Positions 1 to 30,289 of a stretch of 64,000 nt of DNA are shown piece after piece. The first letter of the stretch is position 1; the number at the start of each line of letters is the position of its first letter. The DNA is from a virus. The notes beneath the pieces were generated by a model that saw only the letters and a program-made list of their open reading frames with translations, searched no databases and had not been told where the DNA came from. The stretch is from IMG/VR virus record IMGVR_UViG_3300045988_124082; one strand, written 5' to 3'. The position numbers and the translations under genes were made by a program.

Positions 1-1229
1 TCTGACTGTAAGATGTTCTTCTCAGTCATATTCTTACCTCGTAGGAAGAGCAGAGTCTTTCTGTAATCCATTCCAAGAATGTCTTTGATCTCTTTTATGG
101 TTGGCTCACAAAGCTCTCTTATTTGGTCGTCTGTAAGATAATAGCTTTGTAAGAACTGATAGTTAAGATTCCTTTCAGTATCACATTCTTGTTCGGCTGT
201 CTTGGCAAGAGCAAAGTGATAATCATACTTCTCAATGTTCTCTAAGTAGTCTTCCATAGACTCATATGCATCCCATAGCTTAAACATAGATGTTGTAAGT
301 ATCACCTGAGCGTCTCTAACGTCCCTAGGATGGCCCCAAGCATCAATAATGGTATAAGTCTTAGCTACGTCCTCTGCAAAGGCTCTAAAGTCCATACAGT
401 GAAGCATACCTTTACAGAATGGCCATCCTCTCATGTTGCCAGATGGAAGAGGAGTATCATAATCTCCATTCAGTTCACCGTTCCATTGTCTTGCAAGTTC
501 TGGAAGAACTAATCCTTCTCCATCAGATCCGTTGTGTACAAACTCTTGATCATCAAGAAGAGTTACTTCTGGCTCATCTGAGTTTGTATCATCCACATAA
601 AGAGCTTGTCCCTTAAAGATCGTCTCACAGTCTTGTACAACAATCACTCCTGATGGTGTAGTAACAACTGTAGAAGAAGAGCAGAAGAGTGCTTTGTACG
701 CTCCGAGCTTGTTTGGTATGATCGGAACTTCTTTATTTCTTCCGGCATCTACTTTCTCACAGAGAGCATCGTATACATTGTCACTGACAAAGATCACGAC
801 ACTATTCTTTAAACCTCCTGTGGTTCCTAAGAAGAGATTGTAGTGAAGATCGTTTACAATGAATCCATGCTTGCTGCAGTAGTCATAATCTTTCTTTGTG
901 TCGAAGACCACTGTGAGGTAGTCTGTTTGGAATCGACATTTGTACAGATCATTGTAGAGTAGTGAGATAAGTTCTTTGCTTCCTCTGTTGGCTGAAAGCT
1001 CTTTGATCTTCTTTCGGATTCTTTTTGCTCTTATGTCTGAATCATAGTCATGGATCAATGAGTCAATTGTTCTTAATGCTTCAGAACTTGAAAGAGTAAT
1101 AATGTCGTCTCCATTCTCCCTCGCTTCATTGAGTGGTAGAGAAAGTTTCCACTTCGCCTTTCTTAATCGGCTGCTGTGTAGTTTGTAAATATATTTCTGA
1201 CTCGTTTTTTGCTTAGAAATAATGATCAC
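1..1229 (-). CDS. Partial CDS (C-terminus lies beyond the window start); N-terminal ~409 aa of a putative eukaryotic-RdRP/YonO-like single-subunit RNA polymerase (tentative)
   Basis: My own translation shows an uninterrupted minus-strand frame from position 1 up to an AAGGAG RBS at 1229-1234. It is absent from the ORF track because there is no stop inside the window. Motifs read: LGAYKALFCSSST, NGSDGEGLVLPELA, MRGWPFCKGML, QVILTTSMFK, NLNYQFLQSY. Start codon is unclear (GTG at 1229 overlaps the RBS; ATT at 1223 or 1220 has better spacing). Confidence 0.5.
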   Translation of the reverse strand, partial: MIIISKQKTSQKYIYKLHSSRLRKAKWKLSLPLNEARENGDDIITLSSSEALRTIDSLIHDYDSDIRAKRIRKKIKELSANRGSKELISLLYNDLYKCRFQTDYLTVVFDTKKDYDYCSKHGFIVNDLHYNLFLGTTGGLKNSVVIFVSDNVYDALCEKVDAGRNKEVPIIPNKLGAYKALFCSSSTVVTTPSGVIVVQDCETIFKGQALYVDDTNSDEPEVTLLDDQEFVHNGSDGEGLVLPELARQWNGELNGDYDTPLPSGNMRGWPFCKGMLHCMDFRAFAEDVAKTYTIIDAWGHPRDVRDAQVILTTSMFKLWDAYESMEDYLENIEKYDYHFALAKTAEQECDTERNLNYQFLQSYYLTDDQIRELCEPTIKEIKDILGMDYRKTLLFLRGKNMTEKNILQS

Positions 1230-1335
1230 TCCTTTTTTGATTTTTTATGTGTTGAGTGGAGAGAAGTTTTTGTAATTTTTAGCCTCTCCAAAACTTAATC
1301 TCTTAGTATAAAAATTTCGGCGTCCATAATTTAAG

Positions 1336-1374
1336 TAATATTCTTAATGTTACTACGTAACATTAAAAATATTA
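1336..1374. promoter_or_regulatory. AT-rich imperfect palindrome between two minus-strand genes (operator or bidirectional terminator candidate)
   Basis: TAATATT-c-TTAATGTTAC-tac-GTAACATTAA-aa-AATATTA; the core 9-bp arms TAATGTTAC/GTAACATTA pair perfectly. Confidence 0.3.
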
Positions 1375-1472
1375 TTAAATCATTTATTTATTTTATAAAA
1401 CACTATTATTAAATAATATTTAATATTACTGTACCGCCCGATTTCGAAGACGGCATCGTAAGAATAGCGTAT

Positions 1473-2615
1473 TTATGCTGTTTGATACATAACAGAGGGT
1501 CTAAAACCTCTCCCAAAAAGAGGACTGATTTTACCATGTTTTTGAAGAAAAATGATAACTTTTCGAACATCTGTTTTGTACCGAACATGTTTCTTCTCAT
1601 AATACTCATGAATAAAATTCATTGATACATCACTTAACTCTTCTTCAGTCATATTAAGTCCATCGAGAAGTGGTTTACGAACCTTGTTCATATACTTTAT
1701 GGTGTAATTATTTATCAAATCATCTTTTCTACGCTGCGCAACTTTAATATACTTGTCAGTTAAATTATTCTGAACTCTTTTTTGATACATATAAAATTCA
1801 TACTCTCTTAGGTAGCTATGCTCTTGTGGGTAGAGATACTCTAAGTCGTATACAAACTTAAAGTATAAGTCTTGAAATTCAGGATATTTTTTTATCTCGT
1901 GCTTGAACTTAGAGAATACATTTGTATACATATGAGTTGAATATATGTCAACGTCAACATTCGTATGATATACAACACCTAAACAGTGTTTGTAGATTTC
2001 TTCTTCTCGAGGTGTGAATGGTCGCCATTCAGCTCCAGGATGATTTCTACAAATGATTTTCACATGTTTCTTAACTACACCTCTTTCTTGAAGAGATACA
2101 ATTGCATTCCTAAATCTTCCTTGAGCGCAATCTTTAATTGCTTCATATGCCGTATGGAAATATTCGACAGGGTATTTAAAATCGCTTAGGTCATAATCTT
2201 TTTTGTTTCCACAGATAAGTCCAAGTTTATTACACCAGTCATATTGGCTCCAGTTGTCATTAATATGATTGTCCAGAATATAGATGATCATCATTTCTAA
2301 CATGTATCCAGTACTCATGAAAGGACTTTTTAATTCCCATGAGAAGGGATTCTCAACATATTCTCCTCTTGCTTTTGTCACTTTAACTTGTCCATCTTTT
2401 TGTTTTTTTACATTTACGAAATGACTTAAATTAGCTTTATGGACTGCATAGTGACTCTTTCTGCCTTCCTTGTCGATTCCAACTAATTGAAGAATGTCAG
2501 AGTATTTGCTGTACTTGTGTCCTTCTTTCAGATTGGATAAATCGAAAAGATGTTGTCTCTCTTTCATGAACCAGAACTGTTCGTTTAGATATTCGTTTCT
2601 TTCTTGTAATGTCAT
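1473..2615 (-). CDS. Hypothetical protein (~380 aa)
   Basis: Track ORF 1473..2687. I start it at the internal ATG (MTLQERNEYL...), which is preceded by AAAGGAGG plus 8 nt. The longer N-terminus has no RBS and overlaps a repeat. Confidence 0.7.
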   Translation of the reverse strand: MTLQERNEYLNEQFWFMKERQHLFDLSNLKEGHKYSKYSDILQLVGIDKEGRKSHYAVHKANLSHFVNVKKQKDGQVKVTKARGEYVENPFSWELKSPFMSTGYMLEMMIIYILDNHINDNWSQYDWCNKLGLICGNKKDYDLSDFKYPVEYFHTAYEAIKDCAQGRFRNAIVSLQERGVVKKHVKIICRNHPGAEWRPFTPREEEIYKHCLGVVYHTNVDVDIYSTHMYTNVFSKFKHEIKKYPEFQDLYFKFVYDLEYLYPQEHSYLREYEFYMYQKRVQNNLTDKYIKVAQRRKDDLINNYTIKYMNKVRKPLLDGLNMTEEELSDVSMNFIHEYYEKKHVRYKTDVRKVIIFLQKHGKISPLFGRGFRPSVMYQTA

Positions 2616-2675
2616 TTTTTTGACCTCCTTTTCGTTGTTTGTTGTTGTTAATTTAATGAAAAAATGCATTTGTCT

Positions 2676-2781
2676 GAGTAATGACACTTTTCTTTCGATG
2701 AATTCACATTACCACAGATGTATGACAAAATCAATAGTTTTTTGAAGAAAAAAATAAAATTGTGAGAGTAATGACACTTTT
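2676..2781. repeat. Two exact 16-nt direct repeats GAGTAATGACACTTTT (2676-2691, 2766-2781)
   Basis: Read directly. They are spaced 90 nt apart, just upstream of the minus-strand gene start, so they may be operator or promoter elements. Confidence 0.6.
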
Positions 2782-2828
2782 TATTTCATTTAAGTACGTT
2801 TAAGGAGGCTTAGACTGGGATTTTTATG

Positions 2829-3024
2829 TCAAGTGTTTTTTGAAAATTTCTTAAAATGGTGCTTTCTTTGGCTGTTTTACTGGGGTTGTTCTGGATTTTT
2901 CTTTGATTTGTTGTACTTAGATGGGTAGGAATATGGCCGTTTTATGCGATTGTACAAAAATAAAATAAATTAATTTTTTATATGCTAAAGTATTGACTTT
3001 TGAAAAATCAAGTGTTTTTTGAAA
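2829..3024. repeat. Two exact 17-nt direct repeats TCAAGTGTTTTTTGAAA (2829-2845, 3008-3024)
   Basis: Read directly in the ORF-free divergent region. The second copy sits 8 nt after a TTGACT -35-like hexamer at 2994. Confidence 0.6.
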
Positions 3025-3039
3025 GAAATTTAAAAAAAT

Positions 3040-3300
3040 TTTTACCATGTGGAATTCTCAGAGAAGGGGTTTGCATTTATATAAGAAGAGCTTGGTTTTT
3101 GAAAAAATTTCAGAGAGATGGGTTTGCGGCAGAACAGGTGTTCTATATTTTAGAGTGTGCTGAGGGGTGTGTTTCTGGGGAAAGTTTTTATGAGGGGGGA
3201 GGAGTGTATGTGGGGTGTTTGGAAAGAAATATGGGGGATGTTTTTAGGGGGTTTTGAGGGGTTAAATGGCGTAGATGTGGGGTGGAGAAACGTCTGGCTG
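3040..3300 (+). other. C-depleted G/T-rich tract with about 10 runs of G3-G6 (G-quadruplex candidate)
   Basis: GGGG, GGGGGG and GGGGG runs at about 3066, 3164, 3176, 3194, 3212, 3233, 3246, 3258 and 3280. There are almost no C residues on the plus strand. The track ORFs here (3000..3257, 3157..3354) are low-complexity artefacts. Confidence 0.5.
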
Positions 3301-3544
3301 AACTTGTGGTATAGAATTACCAGCTATACAAATATCAGCAAAACTGCGATTTAAAAATAGTTTTAAGTAGCCCCATAAACACTTGTAAAAGTCCGTAAAT
3401 AACTATTTACTTGCGTTTTTGATCAGAAATAGATAGTCAAAAAAGCACGTATTTATGCGGGTTTGAGACCGTTTGAAAAGATTTTTAAAAATAATTTTTT
3501 TAGGGTATTGCAATATTTTCGTGGGCGTGGTCTTATACAGTTGT

Positions 3545-4440
3545 TCAAACGAACAGGGAACTTGATAAAGCAACAACCGGCAAGGGTTGTAAAACGTGCT
3601 TGCCAATGATTCAACATAAAAAGGGGGTAGCCCTACCCCTGTATAAAAATCGGGCGTGTACCTTGATAATTTCATAGCCTAAGGACTCTCGTTTTTCGGG
3701 AAGTCCGTTACTGTTCGACAAGTCTCCGAACAGGTTCAAAAAATCAGTTTCTTTGGAAACTGAACGACAGGCTAAAACTCTGCCCTGTTACTCATTCGTG
3801 ACAGGCAGACAAGTAAACCTTTGACTTATTGCCTGTACCCAACGTCACACGAACGTGGTACAGGATTTATAAGAAGTCGTTGCAAGTCCAAAGAAGTGTA
3901 GCAGATTTTTTGAATCGGTTCGCAAAAATACAGGTAGTGACAGCCTGTAGACAAACTACCGAACGGTTGAAAGGTTTCCTAAGCGATATATTTTATATTG
4001 CTTAGTATAGTCGATATGACAGGGTGTCAAACATTGACGGTTGACCCGAAACACGTCCATATACTATAAGTCCCTGTGGGGGTGGGGTCCTGTCTTTCAA
4101 GTGTTTGAAAAGCGTTGTTGTTGACACTATAACAGAGTACCGCCCACGGTAGAAAGTTCTAACAGGCACGACAACGGCTCTCATTCGAGCTGGGTATATT
4201 GTGCATTGAATACTACTACTTATCTAGTTCAACGGTAGGAGACTAGACTCTGTGAAATAATAGGCTATGACAGGTGCAACCCCTGTATAGTATCGAGTGA
4301 GTGCATGAACACTTGCGAGCGGTCAAAAGTCCCTTTAGGGATAATATTAGAACTCTGTGAGTTCATTAGAATACATCTAACAGGTGTGGTCTAATGAGTT
4401 CATAGGAACTCAATGCAACAAATACATATTTTTTAGGGTA
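3545..4440 (+). ncRNA. Candidate large structured ncRNA (class unknown); boundaries approximate
   Basis: About 0.9 kb with no credible ORF and visibly higher GC than its flanks. Dense local hairpins at 3711-3733, 3745-3762, 3780-3808, 3832-3864, 3930-3948 and 3979-4005. G-U-compatible mismatches favour the plus strand. A possible TTGCAA -35 lies at 3507. Confidence 0.4.
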
Positions 4441-4467
4441 CGACTGTATCCGGAATAGGAGTTTATC

Positions 4468-5445
4468 ATGAGTAGAAAATCAACAAAAACAACAACAGTA
4501 GCAAACATTACACTACCAGTCCGTAAAATGGACTTCACAGAAGCAACTAAAGAATTCCGTACTCTTTGTCGCAATTTCTATACAGATTTTGAGAAAGTCG
4601 CAGAGAACAGGGAAGCTCTACGAGCAGAGAAAACAGAGTGTGAAGAACACTTTGACACTCGAGTAAACAATGCTTTTGACGTATCCGAACCTGTGGATAC
4701 AGACAAAGAATTACCAACGGAGTATGCAGACCTTAGGAATATTCTAGAAAAATATTCCGTAATACAGGCTACAGGTCTGCTTTCTAAGGAAGATAATGAC
4801 TATCTTTCTGCACTTTGCGATAAGTGGAAAAAAGCTGACGCAAAGATTAGAAACTTAAAAAATCCAGTGCCTGAGAAGTCTCTAGTTGTAGATGCAATCT
4901 ATGACCTATACAAGGGATGCTCTACAGATATGAGTGAAAACCGTGACGGCTACGCTCGTAAAGTCAAGGGGTTCTTTGAATCTAAAGGCATGACACTAAC
5001 TTCTTATGGTTGGGATGTGTTCAATGCTTCCATTGGGTTCAATGTGAATAATGACAAAAACTTCTTAGAGACAGGTAAGTTCTTCAACCCTATTAAAAAG
5101 AGCAAGTTTGTAGAAAGATTCTATATGTTCTTCTGTGAGGGGTTTGTAAGTGCAGATTGCTTCCCTAAGACTAAGAAAGCACGTCATGTAGATGCAGAAG
5201 AACAGGCACCAGTGGCACCTCAGAAAGTTGAAACACCTGAGGAAGTACATGAAAAGTGTGCAGACGCTCGTGCTGAAATCTCAGCTCAGAAACTGGGTAC
5301 AACTGAGTCCAAACCAATGGACAAAATGACAGTGGCAGAGTTACGTACTTTCATTAAGAAACATGATACAACTGCCAAAGTATCTAAGTTGAAAAAAGCT
5401 GACTTAGTAGCTATGGCTACAAAGTTCACAAATGTAGCAGCTTAA
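4468..5445 (+). CDS. Hypothetical protein with a C-terminal SAP/HeH (Rho-N-like) DNA-binding motif
   Basis: RBS GGAATAGGAG. C-terminus MTVAELRTFIKKHDTTAKVSKLKKADLVAMA matches the helix-extension-helix pattern. Confidence 0.7.
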   Translation: MSRKSTKTTTVANITLPVRKMDFTEATKEFRTLCRNFYTDFEKVAENREALRAEKTECEEHFDTRVNNAFDVSEPVDTDKELPTEYADLRNILEKYSVIQATGLLSKEDNDYLSALCDKWKKADAKIRNLKNPVPEKSLVVDAIYDLYKGCSTDMSENRDGYARKVKGFFESKGMTLTSYGWDVFNASIGFNVNNDKNFLETGKFFNPIKKSKFVERFYMFFCEGFVSADCFPKTKKARHVDAEEQAPVAPQKVETPEEVHEKCADARAEISAQKLGTTESKPMDKMTVAELRTFIKKHDTTAKVSKLKKADLVAMATKFTNVAA

Positions 5446-5457
5446 TCTTACACAAAT

Positions 5458-5478
5458 AAATACCCATAGTGGGTATTT
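5458..5478 (+). terminator. Hairpin downstream of 4468..5445 (weak terminator; short T run)
   Basis: AAATACCC-atagt-GGGTATTT. Confidence 0.4.
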
Positions 5479-5484
5479 GTATAA

Positions 5485-5555
5485 GCCTGAGTGGGTACTC
5501 ACTTCCAACACCTCCAGAGTGAGTACGTCACAGGGTTCAACTCCCTGTACAGGCT
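5485..5555 (+). ncRNA. 71-nt tRNA-like element (acceptor-like stem plus canonical T arm, no D arm or anticodon loop)
   Basis: GCCTGAG pairs with TACAGGC (one A-A mismatch). An 8-bp hairpin spans 5495-5502/5519-5526 and is followed by a 4-nt linker. The T arm is CAGGG-TTCAACT-CCCTG (5531-5547). Confidence 0.35.
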
Positions 5556-5607
5556 ATAACTATCAATTTTTGAATTCCTAGTGACTGCTAGGAGAAAGGG
5601 GTATACC

Positions 5608-5904
5608 ATGATGTATACAAACAATTCAACAAATGACACGATGCACGAAAACTACGTCAACAGCTTACAGGCAGACATTGACAAGCTCAAAGTAACTCTG
5701 TCAACAACAACAGACCCAGATAAGAAATCTTGGTGTGAAGATTATATCAAAGCACTAGAAGAAGAGAAACAGGAATGTAAATACGAAACCTGTGCACTCT
5801 GTGGTGGAATCTGTGACCGTTGTTACTACACAGAAGCCTGTGAACGCTACAACGGAACAGGAACGGAAACACCTGTAGTCCGTAATGGGTTAGTAATTGG
5901 ATAA
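5608..5904 (+). CDS. Small Cys-rich hypothetical protein
   Basis: Started at ATG 5608 behind AGGAGAAAGGGG. Contains CALCGGICDRCYYTEAC. Confidence 0.65.
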   Translation: MMYTNNSTNDTMHENYVNSLQADIDKLKVTLSTTTDPDKKSWCEDYIKALEEEKQECKYETCALCGGICDRCYYTEACERYNGTGTETPVVRNGLVIG

Positions 5905-5916
5905 GGGGGTATAACC

Positions 5917-6234
5917 ATGAGGGATATAACCATGAGTAAGAAAATTAAAGTAGCTGTCTGCAAAGGCAGACACGAAATCCCACAGGCTACAGATGGGGCA
6001 ATCTTTGGAAACACAATAAAGGAAATGGATCCATTTAGCCTGTTATTAGAAGCATCAAAGAGATTGTTCTCTGACTTTGCTTTACGTAGTGGAGATAGAG
6101 TAGACCTGTATGTAACAGGTCTAACAATGGCGACTCTAGCCATAGTAAATGCTTGTCTTTCGACAGGCATAAGGATTGTATGCTATCACTATGATAGAGA
6201 AACAGGGAAATATATCCCACAGCCTATGCTGTAA
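5917..6234 (+). CDS. Hypothetical protein
   Basis: ORF with AAGGGGG RBS 7 nt upstream. Confidence 0.65.
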   Translation: MRDITMSKKIKVAVCKGRHEIPQATDGAIFGNTIKEMDPFSLLLEASKRLFSDFALRSGDRVDLYVTGLTMATLAIVNACLSTGIRIVCYHYDRETGKYIPQPML

Positions 6235-6256
6235 GACAAACTAAAACAGAAACCAA

Positions 6257-6292
6257 AAAAGCACGGAGAATAAAATAATTCCGTGCTTTTTT
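6257..6292 (+). terminator. Rho-independent terminator
   Basis: GCACGGA...TCCGTGC followed by T6. Confidence 0.75.
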
Positions 6293-6318
6293 CTATGTCT
6301 AAAGAAAGGAAATGAAAC

Positions 6319-6600
6319 ATGAATTTAAAAAGTACAATTTTATTAATTATTGGGGTCGTTATGATGATATGGGGGACGTTGGCAACAATGCAGAATATTA
6401 CTGACGCTCTCAGCACACGCACCACAATAGGCACATACAACAACGGAACCATCACGACCAAAGATGGAAACGTATGGAAAGTGTCTAATCACAACGGAAT
6501 CAGCACAAACAAATCTGTCAAAGTATCTGTCAAGTTTGATACAAAAGGAACTGACAGCGTACTTGATGACGAAATTGTAGAAATCACAGAAGCCAACTAA
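6319..6600 (+). CDS. Small membrane protein
   Basis: Hydrophobic N-terminal helix ILLIIGVVMMIWGTLA; RBS AAAGGAAATGAAAC. Confidence 0.65.
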   Translation: MNLKSTILLIIGVVMMIWGTLATMQNITDALSTRTTIGTYNNGTITTKDGNVWKVSNHNGISTNKSVKVSVKFDTKGTDSVLDDEIVEITEAN

Positions 6601-6617
6601 GAAAGGAAATAGGAATC

Positions 6618-7115
6618 ATGATAAAAATAACTGAAAATCTAGACAAGGCAAAGTTTGAAATGTTAAAAGCACACGTTGTAAATGTACTTTCAGCCCCAGA
6701 AAAATGGGTAGCAACAAAAGACCGGTCTAGAATGGTTACACACTGGGGTCGCAAGTGGGAGTTTGAATGTGAGTCAGATACAGAATGTTTTACAACGGAA
6801 AGTATCTTTGATGCTGTAGATTGGCTGTACGCAGAGCAAGACCCATACAAGGAAGAAAGCAAACCAGAACTAGAAGTGAAATTCTCAGCAGAAGTGAGTG
6901 TACAGGTTACAGATGAGTACATTGAGAAAGCGAAAAGAGGAGCCAAAAGAGAAATCTTGGAACATTTACAGGCTCATTTAGATGTAATGGCACAGCAGTC
7001 TTGGGAGCTTTACATAGACGAAGGTGTAGAACAAGGGAATGATATGCACTTAGGAGAGCAGAGAGCCTTTGCAATGACGCTCGCACAGGTAAACACAATT
7101 CTTAAAAACTTATAG
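6618..7115 (+). CDS. Hypothetical protein
   Basis: ORF with RBS GAAAGGAAATAGG. Confidence 0.65.
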   Translation: MIKITENLDKAKFEMLKAHVVNVLSAPEKWVATKDRSRMVTHWGRKWEFECESDTECFTTESIFDAVDWLYAEQDPYKEESKPELEVKFSAEVSVQVTDEYIEKAKRGAKREILEHLQAHLDVMAQQSWELYIDEGVEQGNDMHLGEQRAFAMTLAQVNTILKNL

Positions 7116-7132
7116 GAAAGGAAACTAAAACC

Positions 7133-7564
7133 ATGAGAACAAAAAGAGAATTAATGACAGAAATCTTAGAAACAGCTGTAATCGAATCTGTAAAATCAGA
7201 TTGTGAAGTTGTCCATTACGATGTAGAAGTACACGGGGAGATGCACAGATTACAAGTAATTACAGGTCAATTTTTTGTTGAGTTTCATCATCTGGAAGAT
7301 GGAGAATATAACTACAATTGTCCACACTTAGTCTATACTTTCGATCCATGGGAAATCGAAGAAGCGTTGGATACTTTCTTTATGATGGATGGAGAAACAG
7401 GAGAACTTCATGTTGACGAAAGCAAAATCGAACTTGGTATTGACTCTGATTTTACACCAGAAGCGAAACCAGAAATCACACGAGAAAATATTGAGGAAGC
7501 CTATAGTCATGCAACACAGTTAGCTTTCTTGCTTAAGGAAATTTACTTCGGAAACACTAATTAA
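7133..7564 (+). CDS. Hypothetical acidic protein
   Basis: ORF with RBS AGGAAAGGAAAC. Confidence 0.65.
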   Translation: MRTKRELMTEILETAVIESVKSDCEVVHYDVEVHGEMHRLQVITGQFFVEFHHLEDGEYNYNCPHLVYTFDPWEIEEALDTFFMMDGETGELHVDESKIELGIDSDFTPEAKPEITRENIEEAYSHATQLAFLLKEIYFGNTN

Positions 7565-7634
7565 TCAATACATAGAGGGGTAGTGATTTGATATATATCT
7601 AGTACAAATTATATATATTTGTAGCTAGAAAATC

Positions 7635-7675
7635 AGCCTTAGATAGCCAGTAAAGGAAATCTAAGGCTTTTTTTG
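7635..7675 (+). terminator. Rho-independent terminator
   Basis: AGCCTTAGAT...ATCTAAGGCT followed by T7. Confidence 0.8.
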
Positions 7676-7726
7676 TATCTATAAATATATTAATTCTTGT
7701 GGATGCACAAGAGAAAGGAAGAGCCT

Positions 7727-7999
7727 ATGGGATTAACAAAAAAAGAAATCTGTGAACGCTCAGAAACCATTGCATATTACAGTGGTTTATGTGGCGTAGA
7801 AGTGAAACAAATTACTTATGGAATTGAAGACTACATGTACTGTGAGTCTGGAGCTTGGGGTGGTGGTAAGAGCTATCACAAACTGAAAATCCAGACAGAC
7901 ATCAAAGGAAATATGTTCGTTAAATTACACGGGTATAGACTATTCTTAGATGAATTCATTCGTACAGGAAAGGAACAGACAAAGCTATGGGAACAATAA
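7727..7999 (+). CDS. Hypothetical protein
   Basis: Internal ATG behind GAGAAAGGAAGAG is preferred over the TTG/ATG at 7697. Confidence 0.6.
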   Translation: MGLTKKEICERSETIAYYSGLCGVEVKQITYGIEDYMYCESGAWGGGKSYHKLKIQTDIKGNMFVKLHGYRLFLDEFIRTGKEQTKLWEQ

Positions 8000-8274
8000 C
8001 ATCTTTAACATTGTTTGAACAACAATGTATGGAACAAAAGATATTCAAACTGAAAACACTAAAAGATTTTGGTCATGCAACTTACAAAGGATTTACACTT
8101 CGCAATGGTTATAGATACGGAATCACAGAGGAAGACGGAATCCATGTTGCGACTTCAAACTGGCAGCAAGGGAATTTCATTTACATGTACTTCTACAATG
8201 AATTAACAAACCAGTGGGAAGGATTGTGGATTGACTTAGAAGACGTAGAAATTGTGGAAGAGAAAGGAAATTAA
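7987..8274 (+). CDS. Hypothetical protein
   Basis: ORF overlapping the previous stop. Confidence 0.6.
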   Translation: MGTITSLTLFEQQCMEQKIFKLKTLKDFGHATYKGFTLRNGYRYGITEEDGIHVATSNWQQGNFIYMYFYNELTNQWEGLWIDLEDVEIVEEKGN

Positions 8275-8275
8275 G

Positions 8276-8728
8276 ATGGAAATTATAATTATTGCAAGTG
8301 CACTTTTTGGGATTATGACCGGATGGGTGTTAGGATACTCAATTAAAGAAGCTGAGGTAAAAGATACAAAGAACTTAGTCGATAATCTGAACAAGTTAAC
8401 CAGCAAAATAACCGAAGTCGAAAAGGAACTGGCAGAAACCAAAAAGGAAAGAGATTACGAAAAAAGCATGAACATTCATTGGTTCAATGAATATGAAAGA
8501 ATACGAGAAAAACATTATAGAGAAATGTCAAAACTCCGCCAGCAAACGGACTTTTTCGCAGCTGATGGAATAGACAAGTTTGTGGAAATGCGAAAACTAA
8601 AAAGCAAATGTTCAGAAGCTGTCAAGTATGCTATGAAAATGTCTCATCCAGACAACAATGGAAACGCCGAAGACTTTATGAAGTTCAGAAAGCTTTATAA
8701 AGAAATAACAGAGCAGAAAGGAAATTAA
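8276..8728 (+). CDS. Membrane-anchored coiled-coil protein with a C-terminal J-domain-like HPD segment
   Basis: N-terminal TM helix MEIIIIASALFGIMTGWVLGY. C-terminus AVKYAMKMSHPDNNGNAEDFMKFRKLYKEI. Paralog of 36283..36645. Confidence 0.6.
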   Translation: MEIIIIASALFGIMTGWVLGYSIKEAEVKDTKNLVDNLNKLTSKITEVEKELAETKKERDYEKSMNIHWFNEYERIREKHYREMSKLRQQTDFFAADGIDKFVEMRKLKSKCSEAVKYAMKMSHPDNNGNAEDFMKFRKLYKEITEQKGN

Positions 8729-8729
8729 G

Positions 8730-9026
8730 ATGTGGGAAATTGGAGATAGAGTGGTTGTTACTAAAGCCCCAGGTAGAACAATTGTAGCTAAGCTAGGCTA
8801 CAAGGGAACAGTTATTGATGTAGTAGATACAAGCGTACTTGTTGAATTTGATAAATACATTGGTGGACATAGTGGAAGTTGGAGTTCTCGTAACGGAAAG
8901 TTCGGACATTGTTATTGGCTACATCAGCTTGACGATGCAGACACAATTGGGGCTTATGTAGACTTTGCTTTAAGAGAAGAAGACTGTGTGTGTAAGAAAC
9001 TTAAAAAGAAAAACAACTTCTACTAA
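8730..9026 (+). CDS. NNYY-tail small protein (family I, MWEIGDRV small beta-barrel-like); tail KKKNNFY
   Basis: ORF plus RBS. The GDRVVV...GTV...VEFD...GGH...GHCYW pattern is shared with 7 paralogs. Confidence 0.75.
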   Translation: MWEIGDRVVVTKAPGRTIVAKLGYKGTVIDVVDTSVLVEFDKYIGGHSGSWSSRNGKFGHCYWLHQLDDADTIGAYVDFALREEDCVCKKLKKKNNFY

Positions 9027-9044
9027 AAGAAAGGCAGGGCAAAC

Positions 9045-9344
9045 ATGAGAGAACTTAAACTTGAAGATTGTAAAGTTGGGATGACTCTTAAGCTAAAGGA
9101 AGATTGTCCTTTTAGAAAGTATTGGGAAATAGATCCTAAGGAACCGGTAAAGTGCATTGTCCTAGAGGTGACCGAGAGTCAAATAGATAGCATTTTTGTA
9201 GATATCTACTATAAAAATGGGCGAAAATGTGTCCCGAGGAATTGGTATTTCTATACAGAAGATTCAATAATAGAGGCTAACGGTTATGAACTAATCTCAA
9301 AGAACTTAGAGTATCCGAACAAGCGAAAGAACAATTATTACTAA
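9045..9344 (+). CDS. NNYY-tail small protein (family II, LEDCKVG); tail KRKNNYY
   Basis: ORF plus RBS; N-terminal xEDCxVG motif. Confidence 0.75.
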   Translation: MRELKLEDCKVGMTLKLKEDCPFRKYWEIDPKEPVKCIVLEVTESQIDSIFVDIYYKNGRKCVPRNWYFYTEDSIIEANGYELISKNLEYPNKRKNNYY

Positions 9345-9354
9345 GAGGTGTAAT

Positions 9355-9681
9355 ATGCAGAAAGAAAGAGAAATTCAATTTGAAGATTGTCATATTGGCG
9401 ATGTTTTTAAGTTAGATAGACGCTCGCCATGGGTTGTGGAATGGATAATGGAATCAAATGGATACATCCCTAGAGAAGAAATCACAGCAGAGATTGTACA
9501 TATGATAAATAATGGTGACGTCAAAGAAGTTGGAATAAATGTTTATATAGGTAAAGCTTCATATGATCATTATGATACTTCTTATCTCCGAGAGGGAAGT
9601 AGGTATAAGGAAGACAATCTTGAAATGAATCTTAAAATGAAAAATCGTATCAAAGCAGGAAGAAAGAACAATTATTATTAG
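9355..9681 (+). CDS. NNYY-tail small protein (family II); tail GRKNNYY
   Basis: REIQFEDCHIGDVFKL; RBS GAGGTG. Confidence 0.75.
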   Translation: MQKEREIQFEDCHIGDVFKLDRRSPWVVEWIMESNGYIPREEITAEIVHMINNGDVKEVGINVYIGKASYDHYDTSYLREGSRYKEDNLEMNLKMKNRIKAGRKNNYY

Positions 9682-9691
9682 GAGTGGTTAT

Positions 9692-10000
9692 ATGAAGACA
9701 AAAGAAAGGGAAATTCGATTCGAAGATTGCCATGTTGGAGATGTACTTAGGTTAAAAACAAGATGTCCTTTTGTGGAATTTTACCTTACATCTGAAGAAA
9801 TTCCTGTAGCAAAAGAAGATAAGGTCACCGCAACAGTAGTTCACAAAGAAAAAGATATTCTTGATGTAATAGTACATATAAATGGAAAAAGATGTGAACT
9901 ATATTGGGATTGTTGGCTTACAAGTTCTACGGCTTATCGTGAACATAGTTTTCACATTAATGTCGATTCAAAGATTAATCGAAAGAACAACTATTATTAG
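9692..10000 (+). CDS. NNYY-tail small protein (family II); tail NRKNNYY
   Basis: REIRFEDCHVGDVLRL; RBS AGGAGTGG. Confidence 0.75.
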   Translation: MKTKEREIRFEDCHVGDVLRLKTRCPFVEFYLTSEEIPVAKEDKVTATVVHKEKDILDVIVHINGKRCELYWDCWLTSSTAYREHSFHINVDSKINRKNNYY

Positions 10001-10025
10001 ATATAAGAGAAAGGAAAATAAGACT

Positions 10026-10319
10026 ATGGGATATTTTAAAGTAGGAGATAGAGTAGAAGTTATTAAAAGCCATACCGAGGATTCATGTATTGATCACTAT
10101 GCTCCTGTAGGGCTTAAAGGAACTGTAGTTTATACAGAACCGAGACGTTTGACAAGGCAAATAGCTGTTGAGTTTGATAAGTCTTTTAAAGAAGGACACG
10201 GTTGTGATGGAAAAGTAAGAGGTAAGCGAGGGCAGTGGTATGAATATGATCCACATTCCAATATATATTGGAAAAATTGCTTAAAAATCTTATCCAAAAA
10301 GAAAAACAACTATTACTAA
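10026..10319 (+). CDS. NNYY-tail small protein (family I); tail KKKNNYY
   Basis: Track ORF 9882..10319 trimmed to MGYFKVGDRVEV behind AGAGAAAGGAAAA. The longer form overlaps the previous gene. Confidence 0.7.
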   Translation: MGYFKVGDRVEVIKSHTEDSCIDHYAPVGLKGTVVYTEPRRLTRQIAVEFDKSFKEGHGCDGKVRGKRGQWYEYDPHSNIYWKNCLKILSKKKNNYY

Positions 10320-10365
10320 AGGTATTTCAAAATCAGTGGAGTGATTTTTGTTAATACATGAAGAA

Positions 10366-10391
10366 AGGCGGGATTTATTCCCGTCTTTTTT
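10366..10391 (+). terminator. Rho-independent terminator
   Basis: GGCGGGA-tttat-TCCCGTC (one G-U pair) followed by T6. Confidence 0.7.
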
Positions 10392-10412
10392 CAAAATAGA
10401 AAGGAAATTAAG

Positions 10413-10808
10413 ATGAGCAAATTTAGATATTTAAATGAAGAAGAAACAAAAGTGTTATTACAGGTAACAGAATGGTTAGATAATCATTTCTTTAGTCCAG
10501 AAAATAAATTCGATGAAGAATATTTTGAGAAATACATGAGAGCAATCATTGACAACACAAGAGAAATGTACGAAGCGGTATACATTTGTGTGAACACAAA
10601 ACCTGTAACTGTAATGATTTATGACTATGTGCTTGACATTATTATTACCGATGCACAAGTTGACAAAGAAGATAGAGAGATTGTAGAGATTGCCTTTACA
10701 ACTTGGTTAATAAACATGACAGATAAACCATTTGAAAAGATTTTTGAATGGATGATTGAAGAAAGTTACAGGGGAAGAAAAGGAAGAGAGGATGAAGATA
10801 ATGAATAG
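10413..10808 (+). CDS. Hypothetical protein (no NNYY tail)
   Basis: ORF plus RBS AGAAAGGAAATTAAG. Confidence 0.65.
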   Translation: MSKFRYLNEEETKVLLQVTEWLDNHFFSPENKFDEEYFEKYMRAIIDNTREMYEAVYICVNTKPVTVMIYDYVLDIIITDAQVDKEDREIVEIAFTTWLINMTDKPFEKIFEWMIEESYRGRKGREDEDNE

Positions 10809-10944
10809 ATTTGAAACAGTAATGAAGTTAATTTGTTGGATTGCAGCAGTGACATTGGCATGGATGCACGTTTCAATTGTTGCAGTGATTGCACTTGCAT
10901 TGGTTGGAACTTTTGGAAGCGAGGTTGATTTGAGTGCAAAGTAG
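10801..10944 (+). CDS. Small membrane protein (47 aa)
   Basis: MNRFETVMKLICWIAAVTLAWMHVSIVAVIALALVG. Internal ATG with GGAAGAGAGG upstream. Confidence 0.5.
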   Translation: MNRFETVMKLICWIAAVTLAWMHVSIVAVIALALVGTFGSEVDLSAK

Positions 10945-11266
10945 AGAAACGAGAAGAAAAGTACACTTTGGAGATTGTCATGTAGGCGATGTTTTTGGAA
11001 TAGATAAAGATAGTCCTTATGTACGTAGAAAAAACAGCTTATATGATCTTGAACCATCAGATGTATTAAAGGCAAAAGTTATATATGTAGACAAAGAAGA
11101 TTCCTCCATTCGCATAAAGGCTTATGTAAATAATGAAGAGACTCCAAGATTTTCAGGTTGGCTTTACTCTTTGGTAAACAATTCAGGAATATTACTACAT
11201 AGGTCAGATTTGTTTATTGAGGACAATCTCAGATTCTTGTCAAAGAGAAAGAATAACTACTGGTAA
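10934..11266 (+). CDS. NNYY-tail small protein (family II); tail KRKNNYW
   Basis: GTG start; KVHFGDCHVGDVFGI. Confidence 0.7.
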   Translation: MQSRETRRKVHFGDCHVGDVFGIDKDSPYVRRKNSLYDLEPSDVLKAKVIYVDKEDSSIRIKAYVNNEETPRFSGWLYSLVNNSGILLHRSDLFIEDNLRFLSKRKNNYW

Positions 11267-11280
11267 AGAGAGGTGTAAGG

Positions 11281-11598
11281 ATGGAAGAGAAAAGAAAAGT
11301 ATGCTTCGATGATTGCGAAGTTGGCATGTTTTTTAGGATCGATAAAGACTGTCCATGGATGTATGACAATGAGTGGATGGATGGTTTTGATACATTGACA
11401 AACGCAGATGAGTTAAAAGTTAAAATTATCGATAAAGATGCTGATGATAGCAGTGTTGAGATAGAACTTTGGGCAGATGGTCAAAAGACACATATAACAG
11501 ATTGGCTCTATCAGTTTGAAGACGATCCAGAAGACAGAATTGGAAATAACCTTGAGTTTATATTAAAGAGGAAAAATAGAAAAAATAACTATTGGTGA
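11281..11598 (+). CDS. NNYY-tail small protein (family II); tail NRKNNYW
   Basis: KVCFDDCEVGMFFRI; RBS AGAGAGGTG. Confidence 0.75.
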   Translation: MEEKRKVCFDDCEVGMFFRIDKDCPWMYDNEWMDGFDTLTNADELKVKIIDKDADDSSVEIELWADGQKTHITDWLYQFEDDPEDRIGNNLEFILKRKNRKNNYW

Positions 11599-11608
11599 GG
11601 TGGTGTAA

Positions 11609-11869
11609 ATGGATAATGAATTAAAAATTGGAATGAAGTTCTTAGAAGTAAAAACCGGAATTGTCTGGAAGCTTACAGATATGAATTTTATACAAGAAGG
11701 GTTTTATATAATAGACAAATCATTGTGTTTTCAAGCTGTACGTATAAATACAGACGAGGATGATGTATGGAGAAGTACATCGTCAATGATACCTAAGACA
11801 ATGCTCGAAAGAAGATTGAAAAAAGGCGAATGGAAACAAATAAACAATAGAAAAAACAATTACTATTGA
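11609..11869 (+). CDS. NNYY-tail small protein (family IV); tail NRKNNYY
   Basis: ORF plus RBS GAGGTGGTG. Confidence 0.75.
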   Translation: MDNELKIGMKFLEVKTGIVWKLTDMNFIQEGFYIIDKSLCFQAVRINTDEDDVWRSTSSMIPKTMLERRLKKGEWKQINNRKNNYY

Positions 11870-11891
11870 TTGATAGTAGAAAGGACATATT

Positions 11892-13025
11892 ATGGAGGAT
11901 TTAAGATTAGTAACAACAGAAGAATTTAATGGGGTTGATTGCAACTTTTACAAGGCAGATAGTAACATGTGGATGACAAGAGGACAGATTGGTAAAGCTT
12001 TAGGGTATCACAATCCAAGGATTGCAATCGGGAAAATACATACTGCACATAGAGATAGACTTGATCCACTTTCAGTTGATACCAATTTAGTGTCTACTGA
12101 TGGAAAAGAATATTCTACTTATATATATAATGAAAGAGGCATCTTTGAAATCTGTAGATGGTCAAGACAACCAAAAGCAAATGAATTTATGGATTGGGTA
12201 TGGGACATTATAGAAGCATATAGACGTGGAGAATTCCAGAGAAAGCCTAGGGAAACAGCCATTACACCTGTTGAGAAATTCTTAGATGGAATGCAGAATA
12301 TGTTCTTAGAAATGAGAGAAGAGAACAAAATATTCAAAGATACTGTGTTGAAGATTTTAGAATCTCAGCAAGGACAGGAAGTACAAAAACCTGTTGAAAA
12401 ACTTGAAGCTCAAGAGAAAACTGTTAATCAAGTAAAAACAAAACCAGCTGTTAAGTCAGTTGTTAAGATTGAAAACCCTAGATTAGACACTTGGAAGTTC
12501 GAAATTGGTGCTAAAGCAGCCTATATTGTTTTTAATGGAAATGAATATAAAACAAAAGGAAAAGTATTCTCAGCATGTTATTCAAAAATGAAGAATGTGT
12601 ATGGAATTTGTTGGTCACAGGAAAATAAAGAATACAGGAGAGCTTTCGGATTAGAATCTCAGAGAGGTAGATTAAGTACTTTAGATGTTGTATTCAATGA
12701 TGAAAATTTGAAAGACCTGTTTGACAGTATTCTTGATGGAATATATGAAAACACAAAAAGAAAAGCTATAAAGAGAAATACGGGAACCAATCCAGAAAAA
12801 GATTGGCAATATTATAAAGAAAAGATTCAAAAACTTTGTGAGCAAACAGGCAACAAAAGTTTAGGCGGAAGCTCTATTTACTCAGGAATCATTAGAAAGA
12901 TGGATGTAGATTGGAGCAAGTATGAAACAAACAAAAAGAAAACTGAATTAGTTAAAAAATATCCAGAGTTGTTTGCAGAGTTCTCTAAGACAGCGGATAA
13001 ATATTTAGAGGAGAAGTTAAAATGA
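11892..13025 (+). CDS. Bro-N domain protein (phage antirepressor-like) with a long C-terminal extension
   Basis: N-terminus FNGVDCNFYKADSNMWMTRGQIGKALGY...ERGIFEICRWSRQPKANEFMDWVWDII fits the Bro-N pattern. Confidence 0.7.
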   Translation: MEDLRLVTTEEFNGVDCNFYKADSNMWMTRGQIGKALGYHNPRIAIGKIHTAHRDRLDPLSVDTNLVSTDGKEYSTYIYNERGIFEICRWSRQPKANEFMDWVWDIIEAYRRGEFQRKPRETAITPVEKFLDGMQNMFLEMREENKIFKDTVLKILESQQGQEVQKPVEKLEAQEKTVNQVKTKPAVKSVVKIENPRLDTWKFEIGAKAAYIVFNGNEYKTKGKVFSACYSKMKNVYGICWSQENKEYRRAFGLESQRGRLSTLDVVFNDENLKDLFDSILDGIYENTKRKAIKRNTGTNPEKDWQYYKEKIQKLCEQTGNKSLGGSSIYSGIIRKMDVDWSKYETNKKKTELVKKYPELFAEFSKTADKYLEEKLK

Positions 13026-22638: not shown

Positions 22639-23940
22639 GTGAATGGAATCAATAAAAGGAAATTAGAACTGTTTATGGATGATCAGCTATGGAGACAAAA
22701 TATTACACATCAGCAAAGCAAAGGTGTACATAGAGATGTATTAAGAATTGTGTGTGATCCAGAATACAAAGCACGGCTTTTAGGAATGATCTGGGATGGT
22801 AATTACAAAATTGCACCTCCGTATGTAGTAGAAATTCCTAAAGACAATGGAAAAGTAAGAGAAGTGTATGTTAATCAGCCAATTGACAGATTTGTTATGA
22901 CACAAATCAATTATGTTTATATGCAATTATATGGTCATATGATTCATCCAAGATGTGTGTCTTATCAGAAAGGAATTGGAGTTAAAAATATCGTAGATGA
23001 TATTTGTATGGAGCTTAAGAAACATCAAGGAGCTGTCGGGTATAAGGTAGACATTAGTAAGTATTTTGACAGTGTAAGCCGTGAGGTCCTTAATGAAATG
23101 ATTGATAAAATTGATACAGGAAGTCCTATTGATCAGATCGTAAGAGATTATTATATGGATGATTGTATCATTGATCAGAAAGGAAATGTTATTGAGAAAT
23201 ACAAAAGTATGACTCAGGGTTGTGCAGTGTCTACATTCTTTGCCAATTGTGTTTTAAAAGATGTTGATGAAGAGTTAAGCAAGATGGATATTATTTATTA
23301 CAGATATTCAGATGATATCTTGATGGTTGGTAAGGATGCAGATAAGGCTTTGAAGATGTTGGGAGAAATGTTAGAAACGAAAGGACTTACATTAAATCCT
23401 AAAAAGGTAGAAACAGTCAGTACAGATCAATGGTTTACATTCTTAGGAGTGCGAATTAATGGACAGAAAAGAAGTTTTTCTGAGAAGAGCTTAAAGGAAT
23501 TTCAGAAACATATTAGAGAATATGTAAATAAGAAAGCAGGAATTGGTAGCGTAAAAGTTGCAATCAGACAAATTAATAAATATCTGTATTTGAATTTCTT
23601 AAGGAATCCTAATGAGTTTGGTTGGGCTGAGTATTTCTTTAGTATTGTGAATGTCGAAGATGATATTAAGACATTAGATATGTGGATTAAAGATACACTC
23701 AGAGGTTTGTATACTGGTAAGAGAGGAAAAGAACAGATAGGTGGACTAGGTGTAAATAAAGTAACTAATGAATGTGGAGTATTAAGAGGGAAGGGCAACA
23801 AAGTAAGTTCAAATTTACGTAAAACAAGAAGTGATAAAGACATTTTAGAAGAAGCAGGATATATCAGTATGAATGAAATGTATCATCAGTTTAGATATAG
23901 CAAAGAATTGTACAGGGCTTCATTGACGGCTTTATCTTAA
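22639..23940 (+). CDS. Reverse transcriptase (free-standing, group-II-intron-like RT with a thumb/X-like C-terminus)
   Basis: RT motifs in order: IPKDNGKVREV (1), DRFVMTQI (2), YKVDISKYFDSV (3), TQGCAVSTFFANCVL (4), YYRYSDDILMVG (5, YxDD), KGLTLNPKKVE (6), FTFLGVRI (7). GTG start behind AAAGGGGGTG, 15 nt after the last NNYY gene. Confidence 0.85.
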   Translation: MNGINKRKLELFMDDQLWRQNITHQQSKGVHRDVLRIVCDPEYKARLLGMIWDGNYKIAPPYVVEIPKDNGKVREVYVNQPIDRFVMTQINYVYMQLYGHMIHPRCVSYQKGIGVKNIVDDICMELKKHQGAVGYKVDISKYFDSVSREVLNEMIDKIDTGSPIDQIVRDYYMDDCIIDQKGNVIEKYKSMTQGCAVSTFFANCVLKDVDEELSKMDIIYYRYSDDILMVGKDADKALKMLGEMLETKGLTLNPKKVETVSTDQWFTFLGVRINGQKRSFSEKSLKEFQKHIREYVNKKAGIGSVKVAIRQINKYLYLNFLRNPNEFGWAEYFFSIVNVEDDIKTLDMWIKDTLRGLYTGKRGKEQIGGLGVNKVTNECGVLRGKGNKVSSNLRKTRSDKDILEEAGYISMNEMYHQFRYSKELYRASLTALS

Positions 23941-30139: not shown

Positions 30140-30289
30140 GGGGACATAGCTTAATAGGTAAAGCAAAACTACATTCTTCCATAAAGAACTTAAAACTAAA
30201 ATTTTCATATTAAATATAAACATTTTGTACCTCCCTATTGTAATAAAATAACACTTATATTTATGTGGGTTCGAATCCCACTGTCCCCA
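30140..30289 (+). tRNA. tRNA-like gene with an aberrant ~95-nt AT-rich middle; anticodon not assignable
   Basis: 7-bp acceptor stem GGGGACA/TGTCCCC. D arm GCTT-AATAGGTA-AAGC (30149-30164). T arm GTGGG-TTCGAAT-CCCAC (30265-30281). Discriminator A, no encoded CCA. I could not fold a 5-bp anticodon stem in 30166-30259. Confidence 0.45.

Follow-up and report, generated by a model that had tools for sequence, protein, structure and literature searches.

What occupies the long gap between two divergent genes of the virus recorded in IMG/VR as IMGVR_UViG_3300045988_124082? We address this question for positions 3545-4467 of a 64,000-nucleotide (nt) stretch of its DNA (hereafter the window, with position 1 as its first letter). 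A first-pass annotation, made from the letters alone, had described most of this region as free of open reading frames (ORFs) and dense in hairpins, and had proposed either a giant structured RNA or a DNA-level site. The gap is 1.85 kb long and lies between a leftward gene of 380 amino acids (aa; minus strand, ATG at 2615) and a rightward gene of 325 aa on the plus strand. Our results support the RNA proposal: strong covariation, an asymmetry of G-U pairs in favour of the plus strand and a conserved promoter just upstream all point to a large structured RNA, which measures about 920 nt in the window and 770-1000 nt in its relatives. We favour the reading, to which we give a probability of roughly 0.5, that this RNA and the 325-aa protein form one functional unit, with the RNA acting as a cis-acting giant leader or as part of a ribonucleoprotein unit with the protein.

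A conserved fold on the plus strand

The ORFs in the gap all have at most 90 aa, and none keeps its frame or its length across the lineages compared below. Within the region there are ORFs of 25-60 aa on both strands. Its content of guanine plus cytosine (GC) is raised: 3545-4440 has 42.3%, against 34.6% in the window as a whole and 32.9% in the left part of the gap. For the plus strand of 3530-4450 the minimum free energy is -307.5 kcal/mol, against -238±9 for shuffled sequences (z = -7.9); the minus strand gives z = -4.5. We also compared the region with 64 tiled 921-nt windows from the same phage after regression on GC, and it had the most extreme residual of all (-51.6, with the worst control at -35.3; z = -3.2).

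A consensus fold computed with RNAalifold from ten sequences contains 233 predicted pairs, in which 96.7% of the cells are paired. Changes on both sides are found in 56 of these pairs, compared with 10.9±2.9 after column shuffling (none of 500 shuffles reached 56), and when the partners are slid by 1-3 columns only 3-10 such pairs are left. Covariation in related phage regions had been suggested as a check by the first-pass annotation, and these compensatory pairs are its outcome. The same annotation had noted stems that need G-U pairs formed on the plus strand only. In the window sequence the fold includes 30 G-U pairs and one A-C pair, and the folded strand is therefore the plus strand.

Other details of that annotation can be placed on the consensus fold. 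The absence of a credible ORF and the GC enrichment are as it described them, and the three hairpins that it named are helix 10 (3832-3864), helix 8 (3779-3809) and helix 12 (3979-4005), each with compensatory changes. The structured region exists as drawn, but its end had been set too early, at 4440; the element continues to the ribosome-binding site of the 325-aa gene.

Relatives of the locus and exchange of alleles

The source phage has a genome of about 130 kb and is known from metagenomes only, in the form of IMG/VR contigs of 122-131 kb; the metagenomes that contain it include IMG 3300045988 and 3300029610 as well as ERZ772901 and ERZ824978. Near-identical copies of the locus (L001-L007, 95-99%) were reached through the downstream protein, and more distant ones were taken from Logan assemblies (L008, with a protein that is 82% identical, and L009, 56%). 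The alignment of the relatives consists of perfectly conserved islands between variable stems, and conservation extends up to the ribosome-binding site. A search of 1.8 billion representative proteins with a hidden Markov model of the 325-aa protein gave four clusters in all, three of them beyond the window's own. The loci of two of these further clusters, L058-L063 and L064-L069, share the layout of the window, in that a minus-strand gene (about 380-430 aa) is followed by 1.6-1.9 kb free of ORFs and then by the homolog. Every RNA of this family that we found stands before a homolog of the 325-aa protein. In the L064 lineage the leader is of similar length and also folds well (z = -4.4), and the upstream box and the promoter spacing are kept.

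In 50,697 cultured phages, blastn in near and distant modes gave no match to the region, and tblastn with the 325-aa and 380-aa proteins gave none in cultured phages either. The invariant G-rich block and further blocks were also used as exact motifs to scan IMG/VR, GTDB genomes and JGI/ENA metagenomes; beyond the phage cluster already described, all matches were coding or due to chance. Matches to TGGGGGTGGGGTCCTG in other phages, for example, belong to a coding motif and were rejected as copies of this RNA. A covariance model of domain A (R1) finds only the window, L008 and L009; with its filters off the sole addition is the Hb hairpin of L059 (E = 0.2), and L064 yields no credible match.

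The comparison with L059 provides the strongest single argument for selection on an RNA fold. Over window 1-3510 the identity with L059 is 96%, and on the downstream side six aligned blocks cover about 72% of 5448-12000 at 73-99% identity, four of them at 93-99%. Between these flanks, window 3510-5448 is replaced as one block by L059 8978-10993. The encoded protein is 35% identical, and the RNA cannot be aligned by blastn except for a 43-nt match (84%) that runs from the U-run over the ribosome-binding site to the start codon; nhmmer matches this 3' end of the element at E = 8e-8. Because RNA and protein diverge between near-identical flanks, we regard the RNA and the gene as an exchangeable cassette. 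The five modules Ha, Hb, Hc, He and Hf recur in L059 in unchanged order and at similar distances from one another; their loops are conserved and their stems have changed completely, and it is this persistence that argues for selection on the fold. The modules take the forms Ha with loop GGCAAGU, Hb with loop ACUAYAAGU, Hc as GCRYAC-CAA-hairpin, He as GUAUYGA-stem-GAG, and Hf with loop GACY followed by the ribosome-binding site. Exchange also takes place within the RNA: in the recombinants L001-L004 the promoter and the first 170 nt are of L059 type and the remainder of the RNA is of window type, the breakpoint lying near 3713.

Architecture of the RNA

The features of the locus are collected in Table 1. 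Within the variable 5' segment, the block GUACCUUGA at 3658-3666 is retained. The same segment of the window has a 25-nt insertion (3677-3701) that adds a hairpin, GGACU...AGUCC, and is missing from the aligned L001-L009. In helices 3-12, which make up the next part, 88-100% of the cells are paired and eight of the ten helices have compensatory pairs, with none in helix 11 (RNAalifold and pair counts). The window cluster, L008 and L009 hardly differ in the apex of domain A, which is about 75 nt long. This domain includes GUCCCUGUGGGGGUGGGGUCCUGUC and the Hb hairpin with its ACUAYAAGU loop, which folds alike in L059, and helix 15 shows four compensatory pairs in a row. In domain B, all six pairs of helix 24 (4175-4192) are compensatory. 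At the 3' end, four lineages share the Hf hairpin, and its stem shows both compensatory and G-U changes among them (GGAUAC/GUAUCC, GGGUAC/GUACUC and GGGUGC/GCACUC besides the form in the window), and it is conserved together with the U-run and the ribosome-binding site.

Table 1. Coordinates of the RNA, its promoter and the adjoining gene in the window
Feature	Position	Strand	Description
Upstream box AAAAAGCACGTATTTATGCGG	3440-3460	+	66-68 nt upstream of the -35 hexamer
Sigma-A-type promoter	3508-3536	+	-35 TTGCAA (3508-3513), 17-nt spacer, -10 TCTTAT (3531-3536)
-35/-10 hexamers of other lineages			L009 TTGACA/TCTTAT; L008 TTGCTT/TATATT; L064 TTGCAA/TAGTAT; L001 and L059 TTGTGT/TATAGT
Variable 5' segment	3545-3700	+	Exchangeable between alleles; L059-type in L001-L004, which are window-type from ~3713
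5' domain	3701-4005	+	Nested long-range helices 4-6 around hairpins 8 and 10, then hairpins 11 and 12
Hairpin Ha	3713-3731	+	Loop RRCAAGU; opens the 5' domain; kept in L008 and L059 with fully changed stems
Domain A	4006-4131	+	Single long irregular hairpin, helices 13-18
Domain B	4135-4411	+	Multi-helix junction, helices 19-31
Closing pairs of domain B			GAGU/ACUC (4135-4138 with 4408-4411); ACCGCCC/GAGCGGU (4139-4145 with 4317-4323)
Module Hc	4166-4204	+	GCAC-GA-CAA-hairpin; domain B; kept in L059 with fully changed stems
Module He	4290-4323	+	GUAUYGA-stem-GAG; domain B; kept in L059 with fully changed stems
Hairpin 31	4354-4406	+	25 bp; domain B, which also holds hairpins 25 and 27
U6 run	4429-4434	+	3' end
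Hairpin Hf	4436-4451	+	GGGUAC-GACU-GUAUCC; ends five nt before the ribosome-binding site
Ribosome-binding site	4457-4461	+	AGGAG; 6 nt before the ATG
325-aa protein gene	4468-5445	+	All-helical product; co-inherited with the RNA

Promoter, continuity with the gene and partner protein

All lineages have a -35/-10 pair with a 16-17-nt spacer at the corresponding position, with hexamers that vary in sequence (Table 1). Judged from its position, transcription would start at about 3543-3550. The AAAAAGCACGTATTTATGCGG box stands at the same spacing in the window, L001, L009 and L059 and is probably a binding site for a regulator of the RNA promoter. It is conserved as far out as L064, a distant lineage with an otherwise dissimilar leader and dissimilar flanking proteins. 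We had also considered TTTTTTAGGGTACGACTGTA as a phage-specific promoter and dropped it, as the motif does not recur in the window.

The RNA lies between this promoter and the start codon of the 325-aa gene, and we found no terminator-like site on the plus strand within 4193-4467, which includes the interval from domain B to the gene. Because a conserved promoter lies upstream and no terminator comes before the gene, the simplest view of the RNA is that it forms the 5' part of the mRNA that encodes the 325-aa protein.

The protein itself offers few clues. Its C-terminus has a weak HeH/LEM match that falls below threshold (HeH, E = 0.0035). No relative was found in Pfam, PHROG or PADLOC, and with an AlphaFold model of moderate quality (pLDDT 67) Foldseek finds no PDB or BFVD match at E <= 0.001. 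The protein carries no repressor or antirepressor signature.

Comparison with known RNA families

The first-pass annotation had suggested a member of the GOLLD, ROOL, raiA, OLE or HEARO classes or a new class, and it is the latter half of this suggestion that holds. Searches of Rfam 15 with cmscan, run both at the gathering threshold and, with permissive filters, at E <= 10, matched no family in the window (2600-4600), L008, L009 or L059. The only sub-threshold matches in the window were IS128, TD-1 and bxd_1, all at chance level (E = 0.22-4.6). The covariance models of GOLLD (RF01998, with a pseudoknotted core in its conserved 3' half), ROOL (RF03087), OLE, HEARO and raiA do not match, and there is likewise no Rfam match in the region to group I or II introns, RNase P, tmRNA, riboswitches or T-box. 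ARAGORN found no tRNA or tmRNA. Since Rfam 15 gives nothing in four lineages, we conclude that the element is not a GOLLD, ROOL, OLE, HEARO or raiA RNA, nor an intron, a riboswitch or a pRNA. Measured against Rfam 15, it is a new large structured RNA family; the comparison covers the named families. Unnamed RNA candidates from phages and microbiomes are listed in two published catalogues (PMC10690425 and PMC8040213), which, given their bit-score filter, are unlikely to include this locus.

The divergent gap and the question of a packaging site

The window carries at its left end (1-1229, minus strand, running past the end) a homolog of the YonO-type single-chain RNA polymerase, which is 26% identical to YonO of SPbeta and 37-38% to proteins of Enterocloster phages and the C. 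botulinum phage c-st. In the closely related locus L058, the gene beyond the 380-aa gene (4048-6840) encodes a 930-aa homolog of SPbeta YonO, the phage RNA polymerase, and in L059 the homolog is broken into two ORFs of 556 aa and 356 aa. Because the YonO homolog follows the 380-aa gene, the gap is the positional counterpart of the SPbeta gap between yonP and yonR. It is to this gap that the packaging start, or genome opening point, of SPbeta-like phages maps (Kohm et al., bioRxiv 10.1101/2021.11.22.469490), and because of this synteny a pac site is expected in the gap studied here.

A DNA-level origin or packaging site was also the alternative that the first-pass annotation had attached to the recurrence of ACAGG/CCTGT words. 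The recurrence itself is confirmed, with 10 + 7 = 17 copies against about 2 expected, a number reached by none of 2000 Markov simulations; in this region, an A precedes every CAGG and a T follows every CCTG. The enrichment is confined to the window's own cluster (7/0 copies in L008, 2/3 in L009 and 0/0 in L059), and the words are mostly the two strands of RNA helices. We rejected them as a conserved binding site since the enrichment is lineage-specific. Thus the link between these words and an origin or pac is not borne out for this stretch, but the expectation of a pac nearby is, by synteny.

One candidate for such a site lies to the left of the RNA. Eight runs of four to six G are spaced every 11-21 nt on the plus strand at 3164-3282, with a GC skew of up to 0.76, and RGGGGR runs also occur in the SPbeta yonP-yonR gap. 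This G-tract array is a likelier pac candidate than the RNA region. Among close relatives a pac would be expected to be conserved along with the packaging machinery; the array lies in the stretch 1-3510 that is 96% identical in L059, and it is the block with the RNA that has been replaced there. In Enterocloster phage PMBT24 (L073 6184-6997), the gap beside the YonO homolog is extremely AT-rich and contains a near-perfect giant palindrome (z = -21.6), which probably acts at the level of DNA, for instance as an origin or a pac. We considered the gaps of SPbeta and PMBT24 as possible carriers of the RNA, and it occurs in neither.

The left half of the gap in the window also contains exact direct repeats, AGTAATGACACTTTT and CAAGTGTTTTTTGAAA, in pairs at 2677-2691/2767-2781 and 2830-2845/3009-3024. 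They resemble operators, and could possibly control the leftward operon of the 380-aa and YonO genes.

Explanations of the locus

Our favoured reading, in which the RNA and the 325-aa protein form one unit, draws directly on the conserved secondary structure of the plus strand, the constant position of the promoter, the continuity with the gene and the inheritance of both as a cassette. From these we infer transcription, action in cis and protein binding. The transcript would start at the sigma-A-type promoter and read without a terminator into the first rightward gene, and the RNA would control the expression of this gene in cis as a giant leader. The control point would likely be the conserved U-run and the hairpin set against the ribosome-binding site. 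The likely binding partner would be the 325-aa protein itself, and this could result either in autoregulation or in a ribonucleoprotein.

Several observations weigh against this reading. A length of about 0.9 kb with several autonomous domains far exceeds that of known cis-regulatory leaders and fits a free-standing RNA better. The candidate long-range pairing that would involve the ribosome-binding site (3701-3706 with 4458-4463) is weak, with five pairs and 86% paired. The association between RNA and protein is partly built in, because most relatives were reached through the protein, and in L070, where the protein is a distant homolog, a small ORF lies directly upstream in place of this RNA. 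The leader of the L064 lineage contains none of the conserved modules. The consensus structure was derived from the same alignment that was used for the pair counts, and the covariation statistics rest on few events because there are only about four independent lineages. Transcription, finally, is suggested by a single observation, the conserved promoter-like site.

It is possible, though we would hold it only tentatively, that the RNA is instead a free-standing large ornate noncoding RNA, analogous to GOLLD and ROOL but unrelated to them in sequence, that acts in trans and shares no more than transcription with its neighbour. Such an RNA would be made early from the same promoter, perhaps cut from the operon transcript, and might work as an assembly, made of RNA alone or of RNA and protein, or serve to divert host defence or RNase as a decoy. 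Its size, its build from many domains and its almost invariant loops and junctions are typical of large noncoding RNAs and not of leaders, and GOLLD and ROOL too are often phage-borne (PMC5737381, PMC12286853). Replacement of alleles as a cassette fits loci in an arms race, and the place at the start of the rightward gene cluster, by the expected pac region, would suit an immediate-early function (as far as bioRxiv 10.1101/2021.11.22.469490 allows this to be deduced). It is more difficult to reconcile with a free-standing RNA that there is neither a terminator nor a recognisable processing site between the RNA and the gene, that the conserved 3' module continues straight into the ribosome-binding site, and that no copy of the RNA turned up without the protein gene, though the search was biased in this respect. 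The exchange of RNA and gene between near-identical phages is also reminiscent of immunity regions, which raises the question whether the RNA might be an immunity or regulatory leader like P1/P7 immI c4 or the P4 CI RNA. A processed RNA would then pair with the same transcript and block the downstream gene, and allele-specific cassettes would confer heteroimmunity. The RNA heads an operon in a temperate-type phage and complementary ACAGG/CCUGU words are abundant in the window allele, yet these words are no feature of the family, do not occur in the L059 allele and are already engaged in local helices. The partner protein has no repressor or antirepressor signature, and known RNA immunity leaders are shorter, at a few hundred nt, and have no such ornate conserved fold. 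We consider this explanation improbable.

Even less probable, in our judgement, is a DNA-level cis site (a pac, a genome opening region or a replication or single-strand origin) with hairpins that form in the DNA. The packaging start in the syntenic gap of SPbeta-like phages speaks for it (bioRxiv 10.1101/2021.11.22.469490), and G-T wobbles can also form in single-stranded DNA, so that the strand asymmetry would be compatible with a structure of the single plus strand. However, about 30 short imperfect helices over 0.9 kb with compensatory changes and conserved loops are unlike known pac and origin sites, and the element is framed by a conserved promoter and a ribosome-binding site. The G-runs that resemble those of SPbeta lie in the conserved flank and not in the replaced RNA, and the DNA-type element of PMBT24 looks quite different from this region. 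That the region has no function of its own, being a decayed coding region or a set of small-protein genes with a structure due to chance, seems hardly credible: the short ORFs on both strands would suit such an origin, but none of them is kept in length or frame, substitutions come as compensatory pairs and not in a codon pattern, and the folding energy is an outlier.

A more far-reaching idea, which we consider doubtful, is that the RNA and the co-evolving protein with its weak HeH match represent a new kind of phage ribonucleoprotein that acts at the genome end. One can picture a large RNA machine of the immediate-early phase, which might be a decoy or scaffold directed against host defence, or else an RNA that takes part in packaging or ejection, comparable to phi29 pRNA. 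The cassette lies beside the predicted pac site, and by analogy with headful packaging in SPbeta-like phages this end of the genome might enter the cell first. If the idea is true, the allelic diversification of the cassette would reflect an arms race with the host.

Whichever explanation applies to it, an RNA of this kind would extend a short list. Few noncoding RNA classes of bacteria and phages are longer than 500 nt (OLE, GOLLD, ROOL, HEARO and raiA), and each of them is structurally or mechanistically unusual. Unlike GOLLD and ROOL, this RNA comes with an evident genetic partner, namely a co-inherited protein, and with a defined context of promoter and ribosome-binding site, so that its function is directly testable. 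For SPbeta-like gut phages, the results also indicate that modules are exchanged in the divergent control region next to the YonO polymerase operon, and they divide the gap into a probable DNA element, the G-tract array as candidate pac, and an RNA element.

Other features of the window

The window further encodes a RecD2-type helicase, a PolIII-alpha PHP protein, a dUTPase and a reverse transcriptase. By protein comparison, the nearest cultured relatives are SPbeta-like phages and phages of Thomasclavelia and Enterocloster, at about 30% identity. The reverse transcriptase (RVT_1, 433 aa, 22639-23940) is preceded by 595 nt (from 22044) without an ORF of at least 100 aa. This stretch folds only marginally better than shuffled sequences (z = -1.96) and may contain small ORFs or an RNA associated with the reverse transcriptase. 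At 30140-30289 Rfam matches a tRNA (43.7 bits) whose acceptor, D and T arms are intact and whose anticodon arm is replaced by a 93-nt AT-rich insert; ARAGORN calls no tRNA there. The gene may be disrupted or may bear an intron.

Comparison with known systems

The closest system by position is the yonP-yonR gap of SPbeta, which occupies the same syntenic place beside the yonO operon and shares the G-runs. It differs in being about 950 bp long, in showing no excess of structure (z = -0.04) and in preceding yonR and not a homolog of the 325-aa protein. Position also suggests a likeness to phi29 pRNA (RF00044), another structured phage RNA that is encoded by the genome end or packaging start. That RNA has about 170 nt and gives no match here, and a packaging role for the present RNA would be speculation from its position.

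With the P1/P7 immI region (c4 RNA) and the P4 CI RNA our element has in common that a leader RNA heads an operon of a temperate phage and that allele-specific cassettes are exchanged among close relatives. Those RNAs are much smaller and act by short antisense boxes, and we found no conserved antisense box in the present family. GOLLD and ROOL are similar in being large (about 580-800 nt) and intricately folded, in occurring often in phages and prophages of Firmicutes, and in combining variable with highly conserved parts. They match this RNA neither in sequence nor in structure in any lineage, and they are usually stand-alone genes near tRNAs, whereas this RNA runs into the ribosome-binding site of a gene and is swapped together with it.

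A further comparison is with autoregulatory leaders, such as those of ribosomal proteins and the phage translational operators of T4 regA and gene 32. These leaders measure tens of nt up to about 200 nt, compared with about 900 nt and several domains here, and for the present RNA we infer the binding of the protein. What they share with it is a structured 5' leader that abuts the ribosome-binding site of a gene, the product of which may bind that leader, and the co-evolution of RNA and protein.

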